From NCBI GenBank assembly GCA_963731265.1, contig CAVSUE010000002.1, positions 224,001-288,000 on the forward strand: a stretch of 64,000 nt of DNA, read 5' to 3'. The notes under the pieces were generated by a model. That model made no database searches, had not been told where the DNA came from, and was given only the letters and a program-made list of their open reading frames with translations. Positions 2,030-62,275 of the stretch are shown piece after piece (position 1 is the stretch's first letter; every line of letters begins with the position of its first letter). A program made the position numbers and the translations under genes. The DNA comes from an uncultured Verrucomicrobiae bacterium (lineage in GTDB: Bacteria; Chlamydiota; Chlamydiia; Chlamydiales; Rhabdochlamydiaceae).

Positions 2030-2031
2030 AG

Positions 2032-2133
2032 TTATACCTGACTCGGCGATAAACTTGGATTTTCTGCGAACACGCAGTCAGACGGAAAAAGGCGGGAGCA
2101 GAAAATCCAAGTTTATCGCCGAGTCAGGTATAA
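2032..2133. repeat. Palindromic miniature element with perfect 36-bp arms
   Basis: 2032-2067 TTATACCTGACTCGGCGATAAACTTGGATTTTCTGC is the exact reverse complement of 2098-2133; 30-nt spacer. Confidence 0.95.
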
Positions 2134-2213
2134 GCCTTTCCTCTTTTTTTCTTGATTGAACCTGAAGAATATGTCAACCTTGTGGAAATGGTCTTTTTTC
2201 GAGGTTGCGCACA

Positions 2214-3863
2214 ATGGTTGAAGGGTATGAGGAATTTACCGAAAGTCAAATAAAAATTTTACAGCGCTACGTCACCCACACGTCCAGTAATATCTTCGTT
2301 CTTCGCAATCTTCCCGAAGTGATTAAGGGCGCGCTTTTTTCCCGTTATTCTCGGTCGAGCCTAGGGCTGAGATCGCTGCTTCTAAAAGATTTTATCCTCA
2401 ATGAAGAGACGGCCTTCAATGCGATCGCAGGCGCTGTTCATGCGGGGGAGCAGTCGGAGCATGAGCTCGAAGACCAGATCGTGGCGATTAAAAAAGCGCA
2501 AAATTTCTATGACCGCATCCTGGACGGTTACGGCGATGATTCGATCGGGGAGCTTGGCGGAGCGCATTTGGCCCTGGAAAATGTGTCGATGATCGCTGCC
2601 AATATGGTAGAGGACTGCCGCATCGGCGGATCTCCTTTGGAAAAATCGACCCGCTACATTTATTTTGATCAAAAAGTGAATGGGGAATATCTGTTCTTCC
2701 GCGAGCCCATTTTAATGGCTTCAGCGTTTCGAGAGCCCTATCTCAAAACATGCAACTTTCTTTTTGAAACCTATTCCGCGCTCATTCCTCCCCTCACAGA
2801 ACTCATGGAGAAAAAATTCCCCAAAGAACACGATGTCTCCAAAGTCGCCTATACGGCTGCTTTGCGCGCAAAAGTCCTCGACTGCTTAAGAGGGTTGCTG
2901 CCCGCCAGCGCTTTGACAAATATGGGAATGTATGGAAATGGGCGGTTCTTCGAGAGTTTGATCCAGAAACTCAATTGCCATAATCTCGCCGAAATGCAAG
3001 ACATCGGAAGAAAGTCGTTTCAGGAACTGTCCAAAGTCGTCCCTTCTTTTATCCGCCGCGGCGATCCAGCGCATAAACATCAGCGCACTTTTGCGCAATT
3101 CCGCGAACAGATGAGCAATGACCTCAAAGTGCTCGCGGACCGGCATACTTCTTCGATTGCCAAGATGCAAAATCCCGGCGTGCGATTAATCCAATATGAT
3201 CCCGAAAGCACGGCGAAGGTCGCAGCCGCGCTTCTTTTTGAGCAATGCAATGCGGGTTTGCATGAATTGCAAGAATACTGCCGCACCCTTCCCGAAGAAG
3301 AACTTAACCGAATTCTCGATTCAGCTTCCAATTTTAGAGAGAACCGTAGGCATAAATCCCCGCGAGCACTCGAACATGCTGTCTTCACGTTCGAAATCGT
3401 GGCCGATTTCGGGAATTTCCGCGATCTCCACCGCCACCGCATGCTCACGCAAGACAGACAGTTGCTCTCTTGCGATTTCGGCTACTTTACGCCCCATGAA
3501 ATCGTAGGCACGGATATGGAAAAACAGTATCGCGATGCGATGGATGAGGCGAAAAAAACCTACGAATCGATCGCCGAGGAGCTTCCTGAAGAAGCCCAAT
3601 ATATCGTGCCAATGGCATACAACATGCACTGGTATTTTCATGTGAATTTGCGCTCATTGCAGTGGCTCTGCGAGTTGCGCTCTTCTCCTGCAGGACATCC
3701 GAACTACCGCTTCATCGCGCAAGAATTGGCCAAACAAGTTTCCAAGGCCTGCCCCAATTTCGAGCGCTTTTTCAAATTCGTCGATTACGAAGGGTATGAA
3801 CTCGGAAGGCTTGGGCAGGAAATCCGCACCATCGAAAAACGGATGTCAAAGGCTTCCTCATGA
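2214..3863 (+). CDS. thyX: FAD-dependent thymidylate synthase, chlamydial tandem-domain type
   Basis: Motifs YGDDSIGELGG, EKSTRY, RDLHRHR, ELRS; ~550 aa double-domain form; GAGG RBS at 2201. Confidence 0.9.
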   Translation: MVEGYEEFTESQIKILQRYVTHTSSNIFVLRNLPEVIKGALFSRYSRSSLGLRSLLLKDFILNEETAFNAIAGAVHAGEQSEHELEDQIVAIKKAQNFYDRILDGYGDDSIGELGGAHLALENVSMIAANMVEDCRIGGSPLEKSTRYIYFDQKVNGEYLFFREPILMASAFREPYLKTCNFLFETYSALIPPLTELMEKKFPKEHDVSKVAYTAALRAKVLDCLRGLLPASALTNMGMYGNGRFFESLIQKLNCHNLAEMQDIGRKSFQELSKVVPSFIRRGDPAHKHQRTFAQFREQMSNDLKVLADRHTSSIAKMQNPGVRLIQYDPESTAKVAAALLFEQCNAGLHELQEYCRTLPEEELNRILDSASNFRENRRHKSPRALEHAVFTFEIVADFGNFRDLHRHRMLTQDRQLLSCDFGYFTPHEIVGTDMEKQYRDAMDEAKKTYESIAEELPEEAQYIVPMAYNMHWYFHVNLRSLQWLCELRSSPAGHPNYRFIAQELAKQVSKACPNFERFFKFVDYEGYELGRLGQEIRTIEKRMSKASS

Positions 3864-5272
3864 ATGAAAAACAGGGAAGCATGATCGGCGGAATGCTGCT
3901 GATTGCAGGAAGCTGCATCGGCGCCGGAATGCTCGGCCTTCCTATTGTCACCGGCCTATCGGGTTTTCTTCCTTCTTTGACGATGTTTTTCTGCGCATGG
4001 CTTTTCATGACATCCACGGCACTGCTGCTGGTCGAGGCCAATGGATGGCATTCACGCCAGGTCAACCTTTTGACGATGACAGGACAAACTCTTGGAAAAT
4101 GGGGAAAAGGGGTTTGCTGGATTACCTACCTGTTTTTGTTTTATGCTTTGCTTGTCGCTTATATTTCAGGTATCGGCGGTCTCTGTAACACATTTTTTCA
4201 TGTCAGCCTTAACGCTTCCTTTCCTGTTTGGCTCGGCAGTTTGATCTTCGTCATTCTCTTCGGATGGGTCGTCTACCTCGGAACGAGAAAAGTCGATCTG
4301 TTTAATCGAGGATTGATGATGGGGAAGATCATTTTTTTTATTCTCCTCGTTTTCATAGGCGCTGCTTATATCAATCCCCAACTCCTTTCACGCTCCGATC
4401 CCATTTATGCTCCTTCGGCGCTGCCTCTTTTAGTGATTGCGTTTGGTTTCCACAACATGATTCCCAGTCTGACCGCCTATCTCAAAGGAGATTTGAAAAA
4501 AGTGAGACTTACCATCATCGGCGGGAGCTTGATGGCGTTTGTCATTTATCTCGTTTGGGAGATCCTCGTCCTAGGGATTGTTCCCTTTAGTGGACCTACT
4601 GGCCTAGTTGCCAGTTTGAAAAATGACCGGGAAGCCTCCCAGTCGCTCTCTTTGATATTGAGGTCGCCTTCTGTACGCATTTTTTCTCAAGGCTTGGCCT
4701 TTTTTGCGATTTTGACTTCATTCCTGGCCCAGGCTCTGAGCCTTGTCCACTTTTTGGCTGATGGACTGAAAATTAAATATAAAGAGCCAGTTGCAAAACT
4801 CCACGTCAGCGGAAAATCGAAGATTTTGGCGACTTCTGGCCAGAACCTGCATGCAGGTTCGGCCGGCGGCGGCGAAGACATACTTGAGAAAGGAGCAGAG
4901 CCGCCGCTGGGGCAAAGGGCGCCAAAAGGGCGATTTTCTGCGGCGAAGAGTTTTGCCACTGGCTCTAATAAACAGGAAAACCTGTGGCTGTGCGCCCTTG
5001 CCCTTCTGCCCCCGCTTGTTCTCTCACTGATTTATCCACAGCTCTTCTTCAAAGCGCTGAATTTTGCGGGCGGCGTGTGCGCGGTCATTCTCTTTGGTGT
5101 TCTACCCGTTGCGATGGTTTGGATCGGCCGCTACCGGAAAGCTCCCCCCACCACTTATCGCATGTCCGGCGGCAAGCCTGCCCTCGTGCTTATTTTGTGT
5201 TTTGCCCTTTTTATCTTGTTCTTGCAACTCTCGACCATGATGGGAGCAAGTTTTATCCCTAAATTTCCTTGA
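3860..5272 (+). CDS. tyrP: Aromatic amino acid (Tyr/Trp) permease, HAAAP family, with an in-frame palindromic insertion
   Basis: GGMLLIAGSCIGAGMLGLP, AFGFHNMIPSL, AILTSFL motifs; hydrophilic ~62-aa insert at about aa 308-369. Confidence 0.88.
   Translation: MNEKQGSMIGGMLLIAGSCIGAGMLGLPIVTGLSGFLPSLTMFFCAWLFMTSTALLLVEANGWHSRQVNLLTMTGQTLGKWGKGVCWITYLFLFYALLVAYISGIGGLCNTFFHVSLNASFPVWLGSLIFVILFGWVVYLGTRKVDLFNRGLMMGKIIFFILLVFIGAAYINPQLLSRSDPIYAPSALPLLVIAFGFHNMIPSLTAYLKGDLKKVRLTIIGGSLMAFVIYLVWEILVLGIVPFSGPTGLVASLKNDREASQSLSLILRSPSVRIFSQGLAFFAILTSFLAQALSLVHFLADGLKIKYKEPVAKLHVSGKSKILATSGQNLHAGSAGGGEDILEKGAEPPLGQRAPKGRFSAAKSFATGSNKQENLWLCALALLPPLVLSLIYPQLFFKALNFAGGVCAVILFGVLPVAMVWIGRYRKAPPTTYRMSGGKPALVLILCFALFILFLQLSTMMGASFIPKFP
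4783..4966. mobile_element. Palindromic element inserted in frame within tyrP
   Basis: Terminal inverted repeats AGAGCCAGTTGCAAAACTC (4783-4801) / GAGTTTTGCCACTGGCTCT (4948-4966), 18/19 match; internal perfect palindrome 4843-4860. Confidence 0.88.
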
Positions 5273-28382: not shown

Positions 28383-28417
28383 ATCAACTCCTTAAGTGTT
28401 TTTCAATCGTTCCCTAA

Positions 28418-28587
28418 GAGGATGTCTACAAAGTGAGGTTCTGTCGATTTTTCGGTTCTTTTGAGCCGCTTTTCGATTCTTTTTGCGGGGGTTGTATCAA
28501 CTTGCGTATACTACTCCCGCAAAAAGAATCGAAAAGCGGCCAAAATAATCCAAAAACTCGACGAACCCTCACTTTGTAGACATCCTC
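28418..28587. mobile_element. Long palindromic element flanked by TAA direct repeats
   Basis: Perfect 22-bp arms 28417-28438 / 28567-28588 and perfect 25-bp inner arms 28465-28489 / 28516-28540; TAA at 28415-17 and 28588-90. Confidence 0.92.
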
Positions 28588-31169
28588 TAACTCATATGTT
28601 TGCCGAGCAATCCAGCTAGTTTCATCATATCGACAGGTTTTTTACCCAAGACTTTGGCGAGGTTGGCATCTGGGACGATCAGTCGTTTATTTTTTGGGTC
28701 CTGAAGATCGTGCTTTTTAATGTATTCCCAGATTTTCTTGGTCACTTCGGTTCGCGCGAGCTCTTTTGCTCCGACGATTTCTTCGAGTTCCTTAGAAAGT
28801 TTCAAAGAAGTCTGCTTTCTGGGAGCAGCGGCTTTCTTTTTCTGTTTGCCTGCGGTTTTTTTCTCTGCGGGGGCGGTTTCTTTTTTAGACCCAAATTTCC
28901 CTTTTCTTGCCTTTTTGATATAGGGCGTTTTAGGATGGTCTGGATATTTTTCCGTGAGATCGTCGAGATTATTGACAATCACATTGCAGTCGGGGAAATT
29001 CGAGCAAGAGAAAAAGGGCTTTCCGAATCGGGAACGCCGTTGGACCATCTTGCCGTCACAGCCCAGGGCTGGACAGGTAGGCATATCTTTTGCGGGCATT
29101 TCGTCTTTTTTTGGGATATTGACGATTCCGCGGCACTCGGGGTAGCGCGTGCATCCGAGAAAAGGGCCGAATCTTCCGAATCGCATTTTCATGGGGCTGT
29201 CACATTTGGGACAGTGCTGGTCCCAATTAAATGTCGGATCGTAGTCTTCCTTATTGAAGGTAAGGGCTTCTAAAGGAGCGGTGAATTTGCAATTGGGATA
29301 ATCAGAGCATCCATAGAAATATTTTTTTCGCGACCAGATTTTTTGGAGATTATGGCCGGATTCAGGGCATTTGATTTCCGTTTCGATGCGAGGGACAAAA
29401 GCTTCCTTCTCGGCAGTGAGTACGAAAGGAATAAATTTATCCCAAAAGTCGCGGACCAATGTTTTCCATTCGATTTGGTTTTCAGCAATATGTTCAAGTT
29501 CGTCTTCCATGGCAGCGGTGAAGCCGACGTTCATGATCATGCCAAAACTGTCTTCAAGCATCTTGGCAATGACAGTGCCAAGTTCTGTGGGCTTAAGCGT
29601 TCCTTTTTCTTTGGTCGTATAATCGCGGCTTTGGATCTTATTCATGATCGTCGCGTAGGTAGAAGGACGACCGATGCCTGATTTTTCGAGTTCTTTAACG
29701 AGAGAGGCTTCGGTAAACCGCGGAGGGGGGCGAGTGAATGCCTGTTGGGATTGAACTTCAAAAAGAAGAAGAGGTTGTCCTTCGAGCAAAGCGGGAAGAA
29801 TTTTTTCTTGATCTTCTTTTTCTTTTTCCTCGCCATTCCCCTTGTCTTGTTTCTCTTCGTAGGCTGCAAGGAATCCAGAAAATTTGATCGTAGATCCTGT
29901 TGCGCGCATCATAATGTCTTTATCGGTGACAATGTCGCAAGAGACAGTATCGTAAATGGCCGGGTTCATTTGGCAAGCGAGAAAGCGGCGCCAGATAAGA
30001 ACGTATAATTTATGTTGATCAACGCTCAGATAAGACTTGAGTTTATCGGGGCTGTGCTGGAGGCTGGTCGGCCGGATCGCTTCGTGGGCGTCCTGGGCGG
30101 CCTTTTTGGTCGAATACTGACGAGGTTCGTTGGGGAGATATTCTTTACCGTAAGTTTTTTCGATGTATTGGCGGGCTGCATCGATTGCTTCGGGGGCCAC
30201 ACGGACCGAGTCGGTACGCATATATGTGATCAAGCCCTCTGTCCCATCATTACCTAAATCGATGCCCTCATAGAGACCCTGGGCAATGTTCATTGTTCGC
30301 GAGGCGGAAAATCCATAATGGCGGTGAGCTTCTTGCTGAAGCGTTGATGTGATGAAGGGAGCAACAGGATTCCGTTTTTTCTCCCTTTTTTCTACGGATT
30401 CGACTTTGTATGTGGCGTTCTGCAATTTTTCCACGATGCCTTTTGCGGTGTTTTCATCGGGAATGGTGAATGTATCCTTACCAGGAACGGGCTCTTTTTC
30501 TATCCGTTTTCCTTCTACAGAATAGAGAAATGCAGTGAAAGGATTTTGATTTTTTTTCGTTTGCAGAGTGGATTGAATGTTCCAATATTCAATGGGCACA
30601 AAAGCTTCGATTTCTTTTTCTCGGTCGACCACCAACTTGAGGGCGACGGATTGCACGCGGCCTGCGGAGAGCCCCCCGTCCCGTGCTCCTTGGACCCTGC
30701 GAGTGAGGATGGGAGAAATTTTGTAGCCGACGATCCGGTCGAGTAGCCGACGCGCTTGCTGGGCATCGACTAAGGCTTGATCGATATTCCGTGGATGCTT
30801 TAACGCTTCCAACACCGCTTCTTTGGTGATCGAGTTGAAGGTGACGCGCTGGAACTTCGTGCCTTTTGGAAGAATAGAGGCGATATGCCAGGCAATGGCT
30901 TCGCCCTCGCGATCGGGGTCAGGAGCAAGATAGACGACATCTGCATGCTTGGCAGATTTTTTCAACCGGTCGATCACTTCTTTTTTGTCTGGGAGAATGG
31001 CATAGGCGGGCTCAAAATTGTGCTCGACATCGATCCCGAACCCTTTTTGGGGGAGATCCCGGACGTGACCGAGAGAAGATTCAAAGATGTAGTTGGGACC
31101 CAAAAACTTTTTTAAGGTTTTGATTTTCGCTGGGGATTCGACGATAATGAGGGCTTTACCCATTGACAA
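28587..31169 (-). CDS. topA: DNA topoisomerase I with zinc ribbons and C-terminal SWIB domain
   Basis: IVESPAK, DPDREGE, SAGRVQS, ITYMRTDS; C-terminal RTEVTKKIWEYIKKHDLQDPKNKRLI. Confidence 0.97.
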   Translation of the reverse strand: MSMGKALIIVESPAKIKTLKKFLGPNYIFESSLGHVRDLPQKGFGIDVEHNFEPAYAILPDKKEVIDRLKKSAKHADVVYLAPDPDREGEAIAWHIASILPKGTKFQRVTFNSITKEAVLEALKHPRNIDQALVDAQQARRLLDRIVGYKISPILTRRVQGARDGGLSAGRVQSVALKLVVDREKEIEAFVPIEYWNIQSTLQTKKNQNPFTAFLYSVEGKRIEKEPVPGKDTFTIPDENTAKGIVEKLQNATYKVESVEKREKKRNPVAPFITSTLQQEAHRHYGFSASRTMNIAQGLYEGIDLGNDGTEGLITYMRTDSVRVAPEAIDAARQYIEKTYGKEYLPNEPRQYSTKKAAQDAHEAIRPTSLQHSPDKLKSYLSVDQHKLYVLIWRRFLACQMNPAIYDTVSCDIVTDKDIMMRATGSTIKFSGFLAAYEEKQDKGNGEEKEKEDQEKILPALLEGQPLLLFEVQSQQAFTRPPPRFTEASLVKELEKSGIGRPSTYATIMNKIQSRDYTTKEKGTLKPTELGTVIAKMLEDSFGMIMNVGFTAAMEDELEHIAENQIEWKTLVRDFWDKFIPFVLTAEKEAFVPRIETEIKCPESGHNLQKIWSRKKYFYGCSDYPNCKFTAPLEALTFNKEDYDPTFNWDQHCPKCDSPMKMRFGRFGPFLGCTRYPECRGIVNIPKKDEMPAKDMPTCPALGCDGKMVQRRSRFGKPFFSCSNFPDCNVIVNNLDDLTEKYPDHPKTPYIKKARKGKFGSKKETAPAEKKTAGKQKKKAAAPRKQTSLKLSKELEEIVGAKELARTEVTKKIWEYIKKHDLQDPKNKRLIVPDANLAKVLGKKPVDMMKLAGLLGKHMS

Positions 31170-34919: not shown

Positions 34920-35014
34920 ATTAATTCACAAAAAACATTAAGAATAGCTTCCTACGGCCATCCTGTCAATAAAACTTGTCTTATTGGTGGCCATTTGCCA
35001 ACATGGACTGATTT

Positions 35015-35142
35015 ATCTCGACTTTGCAACTTTTCGGGGCCAAAGGCCTCGAAATATTTGCTCTCGGCCGTTCGACCATCGGTCGAACGGCCGAGAGCAA
35101 ATAGGCGAGGAAGGCGGGCCCAAAAAGTTGCAAAGTCGAGAT
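35015..35142. mobile_element. 128-bp palindromic element (CTCGACTTTGCAAC family)
   Basis: Perfect 20-bp terminal arms and perfect 23-bp inner hairpin (35055-35077 / 35081-35103); homologous to 62092-62275. Confidence 0.93.
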
Positions 35143-38959: not shown

Positions 38960-39985
38960 GTGATGGGAAGATTTTTAACTCTATTTTTATTCATTCCGAT
39001 ATTTCTTTTGGGGGGTGGCTTTGACGAACATATCGCTAAAGATGAAGAATCCCTGCAACATATCCGGACGCCTGAGGACAGGAGGTTAATGGGATTTTAT
39101 TCTGCCTTGTTCGACATGGCGGAAAAGAGAAACAACCCAGCGGGAGAGATTCCGAAGACGCTGCATTTTATTTGGTTGGGGCCGAGGCCATTTCCAGAAA
39201 AATCCACGGCATCTGTGAAGGAATGGATCGATCTTCATCCCGGTTGGAAGATCAAATTTTGGACTGATCTTGGTGCGTATGTTCCCGATGATCGGATGGA
39301 GGTGCATTCCTTCGATCAATTTCCTTTGCAGGAGCTTAAGGAGTGCTATCACAAGAGCGACAATTTTGGAGAGCGGTCGCAGCTTTTGCGCTACGCCGTT
39401 TTGCTCGAGGAGGGAGGCATCTACATCGATCACGATATGTGCTGTTTAAAGCCGCTCGCCGTTTTGCAGCAAAGTTATGACTTTTTTTGCGGGATGGATC
39501 TGATCGGACAGACGGTGTTGAGCTCTTCATTGAATCCTTCTCCTCACCTCCTCGCATCAACGCCTCAGCATCCCATTCTAAAAGCGGGAAAAAAATGGCT
39601 CATGGGTCAATGGGACTCTTTGGAAAATCAATATCCCGGTTCAGATCCCTCTTCCGTTCATAACCGCGTGCAGCACCGCGGCTTTAAAGCGCTCGGCGTG
39701 GGGATCAAAGAGGCGCACAATCGCTTGGGCCGCAGGGATGCCGTTTTTCCTCCTGATTTTTTCAGCCTTTCCGAAAGGAAGAGCGCGGTGTATGCAGTGC
39801 ACCGGCATCAGGGGACCTGGTACAAGGCTGACCCCTCTCGTGAAGAAAAGCGATTGTTCAAGAATGTTAAAAAGGAATCTTCCCATACTTTTGTTCTCGG
39901 ACTTTCCTTAGCTGCTGTGAATGTGGGAATGGCGGCTTTTTTGCTTTACCCTCTTTTGCGCAAGAAAAAAGGTAATAAATCATGA
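38960..39985 (+). CDS. GT32-like (DXD sugar-binding) glycosyltransferase, signal peptide + C-terminal TM
   Basis: IPKTLHFIWLG, RYAVLLEEGGIYIDHD. Confidence 0.8.
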   Translation: MMGRFLTLFLFIPIFLLGGGFDEHIAKDEESLQHIRTPEDRRLMGFYSALFDMAEKRNNPAGEIPKTLHFIWLGPRPFPEKSTASVKEWIDLHPGWKIKFWTDLGAYVPDDRMEVHSFDQFPLQELKECYHKSDNFGERSQLLRYAVLLEEGGIYIDHDMCCLKPLAVLQQSYDFFCGMDLIGQTVLSSSLNPSPHLLASTPQHPILKAGKKWLMGQWDSLENQYPGSDPSSVHNRVQHRGFKALGVGIKEAHNRLGRRDAVFPPDFFSLSERKSAVYAVHRHQGTWYKADPSREEKRLFKNVKKESSHTFVLGLSLAAVNVGMAAFLLYPLLRKKKGNKS

Positions 39986-40971
39986 GATGGTTTTTCATAT
40001 TTCTTATTTTCGCCGGCCATGCGTTTGCGAAACAAAACCCAATAGATGAACACGAGTTTGAGATGTTGATGGGAGGAGAGGCTTCGGATTCGAATTATAC
40101 CTCAACGGCCAAGGACTTCGAATTGTTGGAGCAATCGAAGGCTCTTTTTCAAAAACATAAAATGGCGCAGTATCTGCAAAAGGGAGGTTATAAAATTCCT
40201 CCGGTTGTGCATTTCATCTGGCTGGGGCCTCGCGCTTTTCCTCCGGAATCTGTGGAAAATGTTCGTTCGTGGATCGCGACACATCCTGCGTGGACAGTCA
40301 AATTTTGGACAGACAGAGACCGGGATCCTCCTTGTGAAGGAATGGAAAAAAATCTTGTCAAAAATTTTGCCTTTATCAAATTGGGAAGATGCTTCGAGCT
40401 TTCTCAAAATTGGGAAGTAAAATCCGATTTGCTCAGCTATGAAATTTTATTTCAGCAAGGCGGGCTGTACGTTGACCATGATGCGGAATGCCTGAGGTCG
40501 TTCAACAGCATGCACCACGGCTATGATTTTTTCTGCGCATTGGAATCTCCGCATGAGCCGGTTGCGGGCAGAGGTGTGACATGCGGCAATGGAGTATTGG
40601 GTTCCCGGCCTCGTCATCCAGTGATGGCTAAAGTGATCGATTTAATTGTGGAACGGTGGGATATTGCTTATTCTCCCCCGGAAGCGATGCTGCAGCCCTC
40701 TTACATCGCCATGACGGAGGCTGTCGAAAAAGCCATTGATAGCGAAGGCAACACCGATATCATCTTCCCAGCGGCTTATTTCTTCGCCAAATCCGGAATG
40801 CCTCCCCTTTATACACGACAATTCTTTGGAATAAACAAGGCGGATAGGAAAGAACATTCACTGGGCAAAATCAGAAAGAAAAATCGGAGTATTTTATTCG
40901 TGCTTGCAGGCCTTGTGATTTTGAATGGATCTATTTTAGGCGTTAGATTCTATAAGAGGAAAAAAACATGA
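39982..40971 (+). CDS. GT32-like glycosyltransferase paralog 2
   Basis: IPPVVHFIWLG, YEILFQQGGLYVDHD. Confidence 0.8.
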   Translation: MRWFFIFLIFAGHAFAKQNPIDEHEFEMLMGGEASDSNYTSTAKDFELLEQSKALFQKHKMAQYLQKGGYKIPPVVHFIWLGPRAFPPESVENVRSWIATHPAWTVKFWTDRDRDPPCEGMEKNLVKNFAFIKLGRCFELSQNWEVKSDLLSYEILFQQGGLYVDHDAECLRSFNSMHHGYDFFCALESPHEPVAGRGVTCGNGVLGSRPRHPVMAKVIDLIVERWDIAYSPPEAMLQPSYIAMTEAVEKAIDSEGNTDIIFPAAYFFAKSGMPPLYTRQFFGINKADRKEHSLGKIRKKNRSILFVLAGLVILNGSILGVRFYKRKKT

Positions 40972-42044
40972 CCAAGTGCTGGCTGATCTTACTTATTGCC
41001 TGCTTGTGTTCGAGCGGTTGCCAAAAAAAGAAAGAAATTGCGCATCCCACTTCCGATGACTTTGAAAGTCTGTCGGGTAAAAATCTGCCGACCTGGGAAT
41101 ATGTGCAAACCAAAGAAGATTTCGAGCATTTGCATCTCTATCAACGACTCTATGAATTGAAAAAAGGGTTAGTCAGAGCGACGGAAGAGGGAATGGCACG
41201 CGTTCCCAAAGTTGTCCATTTTATTTGGATTGGGCCGCGTCAATTTCCTCGGGAGTCTGTACAAAATGTTCGGACTTGGATGGCAAAACATCCGGATTGG
41301 ACGTTTTGTTTTTGGACGGATAGACAAAGGCCGCTCCCTTGCCCCGGGATGCAGCTGCGCATGATCCAGGATGTGGAATTTTTAAAACTTAAAAACTGCT
41401 TCGCAAAATCGGACAATTACGCCGAAAAATCGGATCTGCTGCGTTATGAGATTTTGTACCGCGAGGGAGGCATTTACGTCGATCACGATGTCAAATGTTT
41501 CAAAGCCTTTGATCAGTTGAGTGAGGCGTATGACTTTTTTTGCGGGATCGATATGCCTCACACAAGCTGCCTTCCCACCTGCATTCATCCGACAAATAAT
41601 TTAATTGGGATCAAGCCCGGCCATCCGATTTTATTGCGCTGCATGGAAATGCTCGCAGACAAGTGGGACCAGGTGGAACAAGACTATCCGGGGACGGACC
41701 GCGACTCAATGCTCACCCGAGTTCTGCATCGAACCTTTTGGCTTTTCGGCGAGGCGATCAAGCAAATGGTAAACCAAGGTGGCAATCGCGATATTGTCTT
41801 CCCCGCCTATTATTTTGACGCCCCGAAAGATGAGCTGGCGATCTATGCGCGGCATCTCTACGCCGGGGTTTGGCATGATAAAGAATCCCCTTTCGAGAAA
41901 ATGGTGAGACAGAGGCTGATGATTCTCAGTAAAAAAAGTAATAAAATGCTTCTTTTTTTCGGTGTGACTTCTATGCTTAATCTATTGGGGTTAATTATTC
42001 TTTTTGTTACTCTCAGAAGAGTAATTGCGAAGGCTAGATCTTGA
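40968..42044 (+). CDS. GT32-like glycosyltransferase paralog 3 (possible lipoprotein)
   Basis: VPKVVHFIWIG, SDLLRYEILYREGGIYVDHD; lipobox-like SSGC. Confidence 0.8.
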   Translation: MTKCWLILLIACLCSSGCQKKKEIAHPTSDDFESLSGKNLPTWEYVQTKEDFEHLHLYQRLYELKKGLVRATEEGMARVPKVVHFIWIGPRQFPRESVQNVRTWMAKHPDWTFCFWTDRQRPLPCPGMQLRMIQDVEFLKLKNCFAKSDNYAEKSDLLRYEILYREGGIYVDHDVKCFKAFDQLSEAYDFFCGIDMPHTSCLPTCIHPTNNLIGIKPGHPILLRCMEMLADKWDQVEQDYPGTDRDSMLTRVLHRTFWLFGEAIKQMVNQGGNRDIVFPAYYFDAPKDELAIYARHLYAGVWHDKESPFEKMVRQRLMILSKKSNKMLLFFGVTSMLNLLGLIILFVTLRRVIAKARS

Positions 42045-54654: not shown

Positions 54655-56346
<1,692 letters not shown>

Positions 56347-56354
56347 GACGTTAC

Positions 56355-56430
56355 TCAAGAGGGCTGATCAAACACAAATGCCGACCAGCCCTTTTCTTCC
56401 TTTTCTTCCCTGAAAATCAGCCCAACTTTG
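56355..56430 (-). pseudogene. Remnant duplicate of the prmA-like 3' end (overlaps likely groEL terminator hairpin)
   Basis: Translates ...EEKEEKGWSAFVFDQPS* vs intact ...KEKEEEGWSAFVLEQ*; 56371-56405 is 31/35 identical to 58241-58275. Confidence 0.75.
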
Positions 56431-56449
56431 AACAAGTTTAAAGAGGTGC

Positions 56450-56534
56450 AACAGGATGGGCAGGTCGGGGAAGCCCCGAACCCCGTTTTTTATCCTGGGT
56501 TGTTCGGCTTCCGAACAACCCTGTTCATCCTGTT
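56450..56534. repeat. Branched palindromic element
   Basis: AACAGGATGGGCAGG / CCTGTTCATCCTGTT ends with inner hairpins TCGGGG-AAG-CCCCGA and GGGTTGTTCGG-CTT-CCGAACAACCC. Confidence 0.75.
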
Positions 56535-56608
56535 ATTTTTCTTTCTTGACTTTGCAGGTGCCTTGAGGTATCAGGGCCAAAAGTTAACTTTTATTTTCTT
56601 GGCTATAA

Positions 56609-58192
56609 ATGAAGCGTTTTGTTTTCCAATTTGTGATTGTCATTGCTTCAATTTTCTGTAATGTAGCTTTGGAATCTTCCCATACAATCTGTCTGAATAT
56701 GATCGTTAAGGACGAGGCACCCGTTATCGAGCGTTGCCTTGCTTCAGTGAAACATTTGATCGACTATTGGGTCATCGTCGATACTGGATCAACAGACTGT
56801 ACCCAGGAGATCATCAAAAAATTTCTCAGCGATATCCCCGGTGAGTTGCATGAGAGACCTTGGGTCCATTTTGCCTACAATCGCAATGAGGCCATGCAAC
56901 TGGCAAAAGACAAAGGGGATTATCTTTTATTCATCGATGCCGATGAAAGGCTGGTCTTCACCAGTGATTTAGAAAAAGAAAAGCTGGACATGGACTGTTA
57001 TCTCTGTTTTGTACGAGTGTACGATAGTGAATATAAAGGAACATATCTGCAGGGGCAACGCGTTTTATTAGCCAACAATCATTTGAATTGGGCATGGAAA
57101 GGTGTCATGCATGAAAATTTAGACTCATCCGAGGCTAAAAAACAACAGCTGCTTAAAAATGTGATTAATTTTGCCGATTCTAAAGAAGGGCATCGATCTC
57201 AGGATCCTTTAAAAGCATTGAAAGATGCCGAGGTATTAGAAAAAGCTCTTCAAGAAGATCCAAATAACTGTCGCAATCTCTTTTTCCTTGCCCAAAGTTA
57301 TGAATCCGCAAGATCCTATTCGCTGGCATTGCAAAACTACCAGAAGAGAGCTTCCATGGACGGGAGTGAACAAGAGGTGTTTTGGTCCCTGTTTCGCATC
57401 GGTCAAATCCAAGAGGAGATGCAGATCGACCCAGAAACCGTTATCGAAAGTTATTGCAGGGCCTTTAAAAATCGCCCTTCCAGGTTGGAACCGCTGTATT
57501 ATATGGCCCTCCAATACATGAAAATGGGAAATGCCGTTGCATCCTATGTTCTTTTAAAGTCGGGACTTTCTTTCAAGCCTTGTGAAGATAAAGTTGTCCA
57601 TGAAACTTGGATTTACGATTACGGCCTGTTTCTTGAATTCGCAAAATCTGCAGATGCTGTTGGTAGTTACGACGAATCGTGCGAGACTTGGAAAAAACTG
57701 CGTATGCGATCCGATATGCCTTTCGAGGTTCAACAGCAAGGCAAAACGCAATTTTCCGTTGCAGCAAAATCCAAAGCTCAATCTCAATTTGCACCTCTTG
57801 CTAACACTGCATCAGCAAAGCTAATAGAAAAGCATTGTGCAGATTTTAAAGCCTGTCCAACGCACGCTTCTCCCCTTTATCATCTTGCAGAGTATTATGC
57901 AAAAAATCAAAATCTGGTTTTGGCCTACGCACATGCAAAGGCGGGCGCTTTGATTTCCGTTCCTAAAACAGTCTTGCCAAAAGAGCAGTGGATCTACGAA
58001 TATGGCCTATTAAACCAATGGGGAAATTTCGCTTTTGCGCTTCAAAAATTCTCCGAATCAATTGAAGCGTTTGAGCGTCTGCTGTTAAAACAAAATGTCC
58101 CCAGAGAAATCCGTATGAATGCCATAAGAAAAATCCAGCAAGGCAAAAAGTTAATAGCCGATCTGAACAGGTTTGAACTTCCCAGCTTTTAA
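56609..58192 (+). CDS. GT2 glycosyltransferase + TPR repeats, signal-like N-terminus
   Basis: ICLNMIVKDEA, IVDTGSTD, FAYNRN, FIDADE, WKGVMHE; FFLAQSY and PSRLEPLY TPR segments. Confidence 0.87.
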   Translation: MKRFVFQFVIVIASIFCNVALESSHTICLNMIVKDEAPVIERCLASVKHLIDYWVIVDTGSTDCTQEIIKKFLSDIPGELHERPWVHFAYNRNEAMQLAKDKGDYLLFIDADERLVFTSDLEKEKLDMDCYLCFVRVYDSEYKGTYLQGQRVLLANNHLNWAWKGVMHENLDSSEAKKQQLLKNVINFADSKEGHRSQDPLKALKDAEVLEKALQEDPNNCRNLFFLAQSYESARSYSLALQNYQKRASMDGSEQEVFWSLFRIGQIQEEMQIDPETVIESYCRAFKNRPSRLEPLYYMALQYMKMGNAVASYVLLKSGLSFKPCEDKVVHETWIYDYGLFLEFAKSADAVGSYDESCETWKKLRMRSDMPFEVQQQGKTQFSVAAKSKAQSQFAPLANTASAKLIEKHCADFKACPTHASPLYHLAEYYAKNQNLVLAYAHAKAGALISVPKTVLPKEQWIYEYGLLNQWGNFAFALQKFSESIEAFERLLLKQNVPREIRMNAIRKIQQGKKLIADLNRFELPSF

Positions 58193-62012: not shown

Positions 62013-62086
62013 GCACTGGTAGCTCAGCTGGATAGAGCACTCGGCTACGAACCGAGAGGTCAGAGGTTCGAATCCTCTCCGGTGCG
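62013..62086 (+). tRNA. tRNA-Arg (anticodon ACG), CCA not encoded
   Basis: GCACTGG/CCGGTGC acceptor stem, CTCGG-CTACGAA-CCGAG anticodon arm, GGTTCGAATCC T-arm. Confidence 0.97.
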
Positions 62087-62091
62087 CATTA

Positions 62092-62275
62092 ACCTCGACT
62101 TTGCAACTTTTTGGACCCGAAGGCCTCGAAATATTCGCGCTCGGTGGAGTTATTCAAAACAGGAAGGGGTTTTTTAAACCCTTCCTGTTTTGAATAACTC
62201 CCCGTTCCACCCTGGGTCGAACGGCGAGAGTAAATAGGCGAGGCAGGCGGTCCCAAAAAGTTGCAAAGTCGAGGT
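62092..62275. mobile_element. CTCGACTTTGCAAC-family element carrying a nested 56-bp palindrome (62146-62201)
   Basis: Perfect 23-bp terminal arms; TAA at 62090-92 and 62275-77; removing 62146-62201 leaves 128 bp colinear with 35015-35142. Confidence 0.93.

Follow-up and report, generated by a model that had tools for sequence, protein, structure and literature searches.

A palindromic element of 182 bp lies in frame within a tyrP-like gene of a Rhabdochlamydiaceae genome (G000), in the 64,000-nucleotide stretch of DNA analysed here (the window). We regard it as quite likely that this element is a chlamydial MITE whose ends are of the IS1182 type and which sits in frame within a loop of a permease that probably still works. 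It has probably added a floppy loop of 62 residues and left the gene unbroken, as related copies have in many other genes. A DDE transposase of the IS1182 type (ISUnCu17-like), acting in trans, would have moved the non-autonomous MITE into tyrP, at a TAAA target within lysine codons of the TM8–TM9 loop. Since 186 bp were added and entered in frame without a stop, tyrP would read through the element, and the permease would gain a disordered loop on its cytoplasmic side that is tolerated rather than useful.

The host gene and its empty site

The host gene (3860–5272, forward strand) encodes a tyrP-like aromatic amino acid permease (HAAAP, PF03222) of 470 residues with neither a stop nor a frameshift. 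Its open reading frame scored 318.8 bits against PF03222 (Trp/Tyr permease); going by the family name, tyrosine or tryptophan would be the substrate. A Thy1-domain gene lies on one side and uvrB on the other; the 552-aa protein encoded at 2205–3863 has two Thy1 stretches, and the last 4 bases of its frame overlap the tyrP start. Homologues of tyrP were found in all 41 genomes searched.

The preliminary description had seen a hydrophilic stretch (EPVAKL...FATGS) in TyrP and expected orthologues to show a gap of about 62 residues. The stretch is present between LADGLKIKYK and NKQENLWL, and the 62 residues are missing from 27 of the 27 homologues spanning the insertion site, so that the homologues do not share the segment. 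The alignment used the 28 best loci as rows, with L014 truncated and L018 omitted for its internal stops. At the insertion site the homologues read ...K(I/V)xYK-KQE or similar, and the DNA of genome G002 matches positions 1–391 and 568–1301 of the tyrP query contiguously. The G003 protein is 99% identical over 221 residues, its sequence stopping short of the site.

The arithmetic of the proposed 186-bp removal holds (182 + 4), but the ancestral site is KYKKQE and not the IKYNKQEN that had been proposed. The N arises because the right duplicate has changed (TAAT instead of TAAA), and the homologues read ...YK-KQE. A duplication of 2–3 bp (TAA...TAA) was ruled out by the flanks of family members and the codons of the homologues. 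Contig pieces from four sequencing runs were short; none extended 31 letters into each flank of a junction, and none gave a joint across the element.

Ends, duplication and fold of the element

The element occupies 4784–4965 on the forward strand. It is preceded by the left target-site copy TAAA (4780–4783), which fits the family target T-W-W-A, and followed by the right copy TAAT (4966–4969), identical at three of four positions. The 182 bp and the 4-bp duplication make 186 bp, or 62 codons, so that the element plus its right duplicate encodes residues 309–370. The left terminal inverted repeat, GAGCCAGTTGCAAAACTC (4784–4801), is an IS1182/ISUnCu17-type end; the right one (4948–4965, reverse strand) matches it at 17 of 18 positions, with one private change at 4957. 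The 18/19 inverted repeats described earlier do exist at 4783–4966, but the family ends lie at 4784–4965. Because the family runs GAG...CTC over 182 bp with a 4-bp duplication, the A/T pair outside it is part of the target sequence.

Inside the ends, a conserved subterminal motif (4811–4829, consensus AAAATCGATGATTTT) pairs with its right counterpart AAAAGGGCGATTTT (4921–4939) around a conserved internal loop. The perfect 18-bp inner palindrome was confirmed at 4843–4860, where it forms a hairpin arm of a three-way junction. The second arm (4863–4911) is a GC-rich stem that contains covarying pairs and whose tip, ACA-TACT...AGTA-G, is conserved. The further pairing repeats were also recovered, namely GGAAAATCG at 4811, CGATTTTCT at 4931, GCGGCGGC at 4866 and GCCGCCGC at 4900. 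Folding of the stretch gave −103.4 kcal/mol (z = −9.6), which none of 200 shuffles equalled. Four of the six reading frames are open across it, in line with the early remark on largely open frames, but this is weak evidence alone (3000 shuffles: P = 0.086 for at least 4 open frames; P = 0.03 for at most 2 stops). Judged by its sequence, the tyrP copy can be classed as a MITE: it is short, has terminal inverted repeats and a target duplication, carries no transposase, and has dispersed copies with empty sites.

The family across genomes

A BLASTn search for related copies, proposed with the first description, found them in G000 and in 10 of 18 congeners; the family is thus present in 11 of the 19 genomes of the genus. 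Its copies begin with GAG and end with CTC. Among 98 distinct copies, 40 are 182 bp long; an exact 4-bp duplication flanks 49, a 5-bp duplication flanks 3 (G008 loci L038, L049 and L057), and 36 have none by the exact test, many of them matching at three of four positions. The 46 exact duplications in the sister genome G001 give the target consensus T-W-W-A, with TAAA as the commonest joint (5 of 46). In the same genome the element ends matched 150 times in the forward and 142 times in the reverse orientation, against 2 and 0 for the controls.

The exact left-end pattern occurs in 8 of 301 genomes of the order, spread over four families, and this patchy spread is as for a mobile element. A scan of GTDB genomes with the element end returned at least 129 stretches. 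The titles of the carriers are mostly Chlamydiae/Rhabdochlamydiaceae, with Ca. Rhabdochlamydia, Parachlamydiales and some Verrucomicrobia; Rickettsia is absent from the 80 carrier titles listed.

BLAST placed about 12 loci of the family in G000, of which only two are full 182-bp copies, both in genes, in the same frame and with similar peptides. The second full copy (G000:C1:421494-421675; L272 1495-1676) stands right behind the ATG of a fused E1 alpha/beta 2-oxoacid dehydrogenase. It adds about 62 N-terminal residues and has no recognisable duplication, and the G002 orthologue is without the segment. Composite copies (G000:C1:1551500-1551805, C1:1202915-1203040 and C1:1616290) have other hairpin modules nested within the family ends or stacked beside them, and the 248- and 257-bp variants contain a similar inner module.

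Other repeats were also seen. Three further palindromic families occur in the window (2030–2135, 28417–28588, 35013–35142 and 62092–62275), with about 6, 39 and 45 loci genome-wide, in addition to a 117-bp family with 50 loci. The copy at 62092 contains a nested hairpin and follows a tRNA (62013–62086). That at 35013 ends just ahead of a glycosyltransferase-like start, and a longer open frame reads through it. No mid-gene copy of these other families was found in G000 by a census that needed 60 bp of open frame on each side and so misses near-start insertions. A 1.88-kb repeat, probably another insertion sequence, has about 8 copies in G000:C1 (for example 55193-57075 and 159562-161444), and three tandem paralogous frames about 1 kb apart at 38960–42044 of the window have repeats of 32–44 nt in common.

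A candidate mover

Intact insertion sequences with the same ends were found at L073 and L135 (1602 bp; duplications AATC and AACC) and at L139 (1458 bp; TCGT). Each encodes a DUF772+DDE transposase of 376–378 aa (PF05598+PF01609) in one frame between the inverted repeats. Four intact copies, identical to one another, are present in genome G112 of the same bacterial family, and the first 17 bases of their ends (GAGGGAATTGCAAAACTA) are those of the G001 MITE ends; the two copies read (L243 and L266, about 1.57 kb) show 4-bp duplications, GAAA and TAGT. The same ends and a 4-bp duplication are found on an intact insertion sequence in G291, and L247 was likewise counted as an autonomous element.

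Compared with plasmid proteins, the partner transposase matches IS1182-like ISUnCu17 at 44% and a Comamonas IS1182 transposase at 52%, and the plasmid IS1182/ISUnCu17 homologues have like ends and 4-bp duplications. The best NCBIfam model is IS1182 (NF033551), but the scores of 93.7 and 79.4 bits are far below its cut-off of 270; we therefore speak of an IS1182-type transposase from a short ISUnCu17-like clade. It has matches in 26 of 400 genomes of the phylum. The ISUnCu17-like insertion sequences and the MITE have in common the ends GAG-C/G-N-N-N-TTGCA-A/G-AA and the 4-bp duplication, whereas the interior of the MITE is free of transposase sequence, only the ends being shared. These common features suggest that the MITE was mobilised in trans by an IS1182-type transposase.

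Deleted transposase remnants lie between such ends in G001 (L191 and L195). No cognate transposase was found in G000 (96% complete) by search with PF05598 or the L073 protein, and the tyrP copy is therefore probably stranded. The same ends also enclose unrelated hairpin interiors in the MITEs L074, L079, L066, L088, L084 and others (Syntrophus, Lentisphaera, Treponema and other records), and thus this clade of insertion sequences gives rise to MITEs repeatedly.

Effect on the permease

An AlphaFold2 model of TyrP built with 25 sequences (pTM 0.79) has the LeuT/APC fold (TM 0.70 to BasC); a PDB sequence search with the TyrP profile gave no match. A structure model had been suggested for locating the insert, and it bears out a loop: residues 308–370 lie between helices 270–303 and 375–391 and, with residues 1–3, are the only ones below pLDDT 50, the rest being mostly at 85–95. 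The helix count on the LeuT fold puts the insert, as a predicted disordered loop, between TM8 and TM9. The LeuT topology places this loop on the cytoplasmic side, and the native sequence is lysine-rich, both of which point to a cytoplasmic insert. A Pfam search of the insert peptide found no match.

The gene looks intact and constrained in its sequence, with no sign of relaxed selection. Against G002, dN was 0.084 and dS about 2, with 11 private residue changes in each, and against G003 there were 2 nonsynonymous and 46 synonymous differences over 221 codons, although these comparisons mostly cover the time before the undated insertion and the G003 part excludes the insertion site. Compared with a consensus built from 8 close copies, the insert itself shows 11 differences, and its right duplicate has changed, which indicates that time has passed since the insertion, yet no damage has followed.

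The same insertion may instead have inactivated the permease, leaving a young pseudogene that is still open by chance while paralogues cover its function. We consider this improbable, though it is the best of the alternatives. There are at least three further tyrP paralogues in G000, so that losing tyrP would be cheap; the insertion is undated, and 62 residues encoded by a hairpin of −103 kcal/mol could stall translation or folding. However, the insert has accumulated its 11 differences and changed duplicate with neither a stop nor a shift, the private residue changes equal those of G002, and the site is a surface loop in the model. Coding copies in conserved housekeeping genes, described below, also stay in frame. 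A permease that is probably still working and would retain transport fits these observations better.

Coding copies and the frame filter

The census of G001 reduced 87 regions to 72 copies with paired ends; it leaves aside about 30 of some 100 listed left ends, for which no partner end was found, and beyond 1.57 Mb it takes ends from BLAST hits only. The rule for coding candidates was blind to the content and frame of the insert. It returned 16 candidates among the 72 copies, 15 of them open and in frame; the one that was shifted is a false positive upstream of the gene's own start. A 3n length was found in 15 of 15 coding copies, against 29 of the 57 others (Fisher P = 2e-4). Only 1–3 of the six frames are open per copy, and the product over the coding copies is 9e-7.

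Five G001 inserts are internal, in a chorismate-binding enzyme, a SET-domain protein, an ABC ATPase, mutY and a pseudouridine synthase. Eight of the 15 stand at codons 1–12 of signal-peptide-like N-termini (reading by eye with a hydropathy check), codons that make up about 0.5% of the G000 total by a crude proxy. One of the remaining two lies near a tsaB-like start and the other in a dacB-like gene (L206) whose start is uncertain; two more copies change C-terminal tails only. Forty of 58 copies in other genomes had enough flank and yielded 10 coding candidates. Eight are open, including the G000 E1 copy and internal inserts in murD-like and sufS-like genes; the other 2 (L108 and L333) contain stops. 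Loci with short flanks include menD-like and ATP-ligase inserts, and the protein database gave three more fusions, one in the middle of an L-serine dehydratase gene and two N-terminal. Copies have thus been kept in frame in murD-like, mutY, rluA-like, tsaB-like and E1 dehydrogenase housekeeping genes.

Two genes were struck independently near the start in two genomes each, one for a MORN-repeat protein (L199 and L034) and one for a glycosyltransferase (L207 and L234). Read on the reverse strand, G001 copies such as L204 and L207 encode a hydrophobic run and then RRR, so that these inserts may place a membrane segment before the native leader. One explanation considered for the tolerance at N-termini, re-initiation at an in-frame TTG of the terminal repeat, is disfavoured, because all 7 G001 cases of that phase are in the stop-free orientation and 2 signal-peptide cases use a phase without that TTG.

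The frame filter indicates that the inserts are translated and not spliced, and translation of the tyrP insert would follow from this selection on other copies. The stems covary strongly: across 55 pairs, double-sided changes occur in 36 and 94% of cells are paired in a structure that was derived from the same alignment, a level reached by 0 of 500 shuffles and compared with 40–51% in slid controls. As a strand-specific bias, G-U exceeds A-C significantly by cells (46 to 19) but not by columns (23 to 15, P = 0.26); unpaired motifs are conserved across the family. The covariation shows that pairing is maintained, whatever the cause, and palindrome correction during replication could yield covarying stems. 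The covariation, the G-U excess and the conserved motifs would suit a functional RNA that excises itself from the message like an intron and restores the native protein. We find this very hard to credit, since neither frame nor stops would matter to a spliced element, and yet all 15 coding copies in G001 have a 3n length and lack stops; copies in genes also occur in both orientations, and Rfam returned one tRNA in the window and no match at the element.

Coding copies use at least four combinations of frame and strand, and different frames give unrelated peptides, which makes the peptide an unselected by-product. Domestication of the peptide as a selected new function of TyrP, a regulatory or binding loop, is equally far-fetched: the frame shared by the two full G000 copies is also that of the sufS-like, menD-like, ligase and P0002/P0004/P0005 fusions, but G001 fusions use other frames and strands, and the tyrP insert is disordered in the model, matches nothing in Pfam and was found in this one lineage only.

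Selection may have acted on the element itself to stay frame-neutral, as a "stealth" MITE whose length plus duplication is 3n and which is stop-free in several frames; we offer this tentatively and hold it rather doubtful. The length of 182 bp is kept among copies down to about 68% identity, and the lengths 137, 164, 167, 191, 200, 248 and 257 are likewise 3n after adding 4. Open frames average 2.4 in 53 copies and 1.2 in shuffles, and of 15 same-end MITEs from non-chlamydial records, counted by hand, only 3 have a 3n length. Against it, length classes of 180, 181, 183, 165, 166, 258 and 259 occur, the copies are not independent, and 28 of the 57 non-coding G001 copies are not 3n. If such selection did act, which we doubt to the same degree, frame neutrality would let the MITE colonise gene-dense chlamydial genomes via loops and signal-peptide n-regions.

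Discussion

The first description had inferred that a selfish repeat made de novo protein sequence in a still-intact gene. Empty sites, dispersed copies and a constrained gene support this, with the amendment that the peptide is a by-product whose translation is deduced from other copies. Peptide creation of the RPE type has so far been without a known mover; the passages of the review text that concern RPEs give the duplication as unknown and leave transposase links mostly unsought (PMC2229807). Here a candidate mover, the target and the arithmetic (182 + 4 = 62 codons) are visible, so that the path from selfish DNA to new protein sequence becomes testable. The in-frame palindrome habit is extended to chlamydiae, and the G001 census maps where proteins tolerate 60–90 foreign residues, in surface loops and above all in the first codons of exported proteins. 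Annotators should be aware that insert-bearing genes are prone to mis-start or pseudogene calls.

We found no literature report of a chlamydial in-frame insertion of the MITE or RPE type. The expansion of IS elements in chlamydiae is treated in two papers (PMC9723776 and PMC13229535), and neither palindrome nor MITE is named in the available parts of their own text. The main text of a MITE census of 183,232 genomes (PMC11602168) is without "chlamyd", and its supplements could hold the family. In-frame MITE fusions and IS1182-partnered MITEs are, however, already known elsewhere, as far as the sources below describe them.

The likeness to the RPEs of Rickettsia that was drawn at the outset holds for in-frame insertion in conserved genes, but the element is no RPE: it is a MITE whose ends are of the IS1182 type and whose target duplication is 4 bp. 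Both are short palindromic repeats of intracellular bacteria that enter conserved genes in frame and add about 50–60 residues. The coding share is 15 of the 72 analysed G001 copies, compared with 53 of the 526 RPE copies counted for R. bellii (PMC1458961). Table 1 of PMC2229807 lists RPEs at 105–146 bp and gives their target duplication as unknown, and PMC10969869 describes them as encoding a conserved peptide. In contrast, the chlamydial family has 182 bp, a 4-bp duplication, a matching IS1182-type transposase and several frames in use. We take it for a separate family on the published size, host and single peptide of RPEs.

The IS1182-derived MITEs described from the archaeon Methanosarcina acetivorans (160 and 169 bp, with ISMac2 partners; PMC3852290) are likewise non-autonomous, similar in size and paired with an IS1182 element, and one has a 4-bp direct repeat; in-frame fusions and long internal stems, as in the chlamydial family, are not mentioned in the sections of that paper that treat them. 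The enterobacterial ERIC/RU-1 and YPAL/RU-2 are stem-loop MITEs as well; their open frames are fused to genes, and some of the fusions are reported to form signal or membrane segments (PMC2229807, PMC2759123). According to the same accounts, these elements have TA-type ends, and the fusions described mostly lie at gene termini or in small hypothetical genes, outside conserved domains. The chlamydial family, unlike these, has inserts in the middle of domains of housekeeping enzymes.
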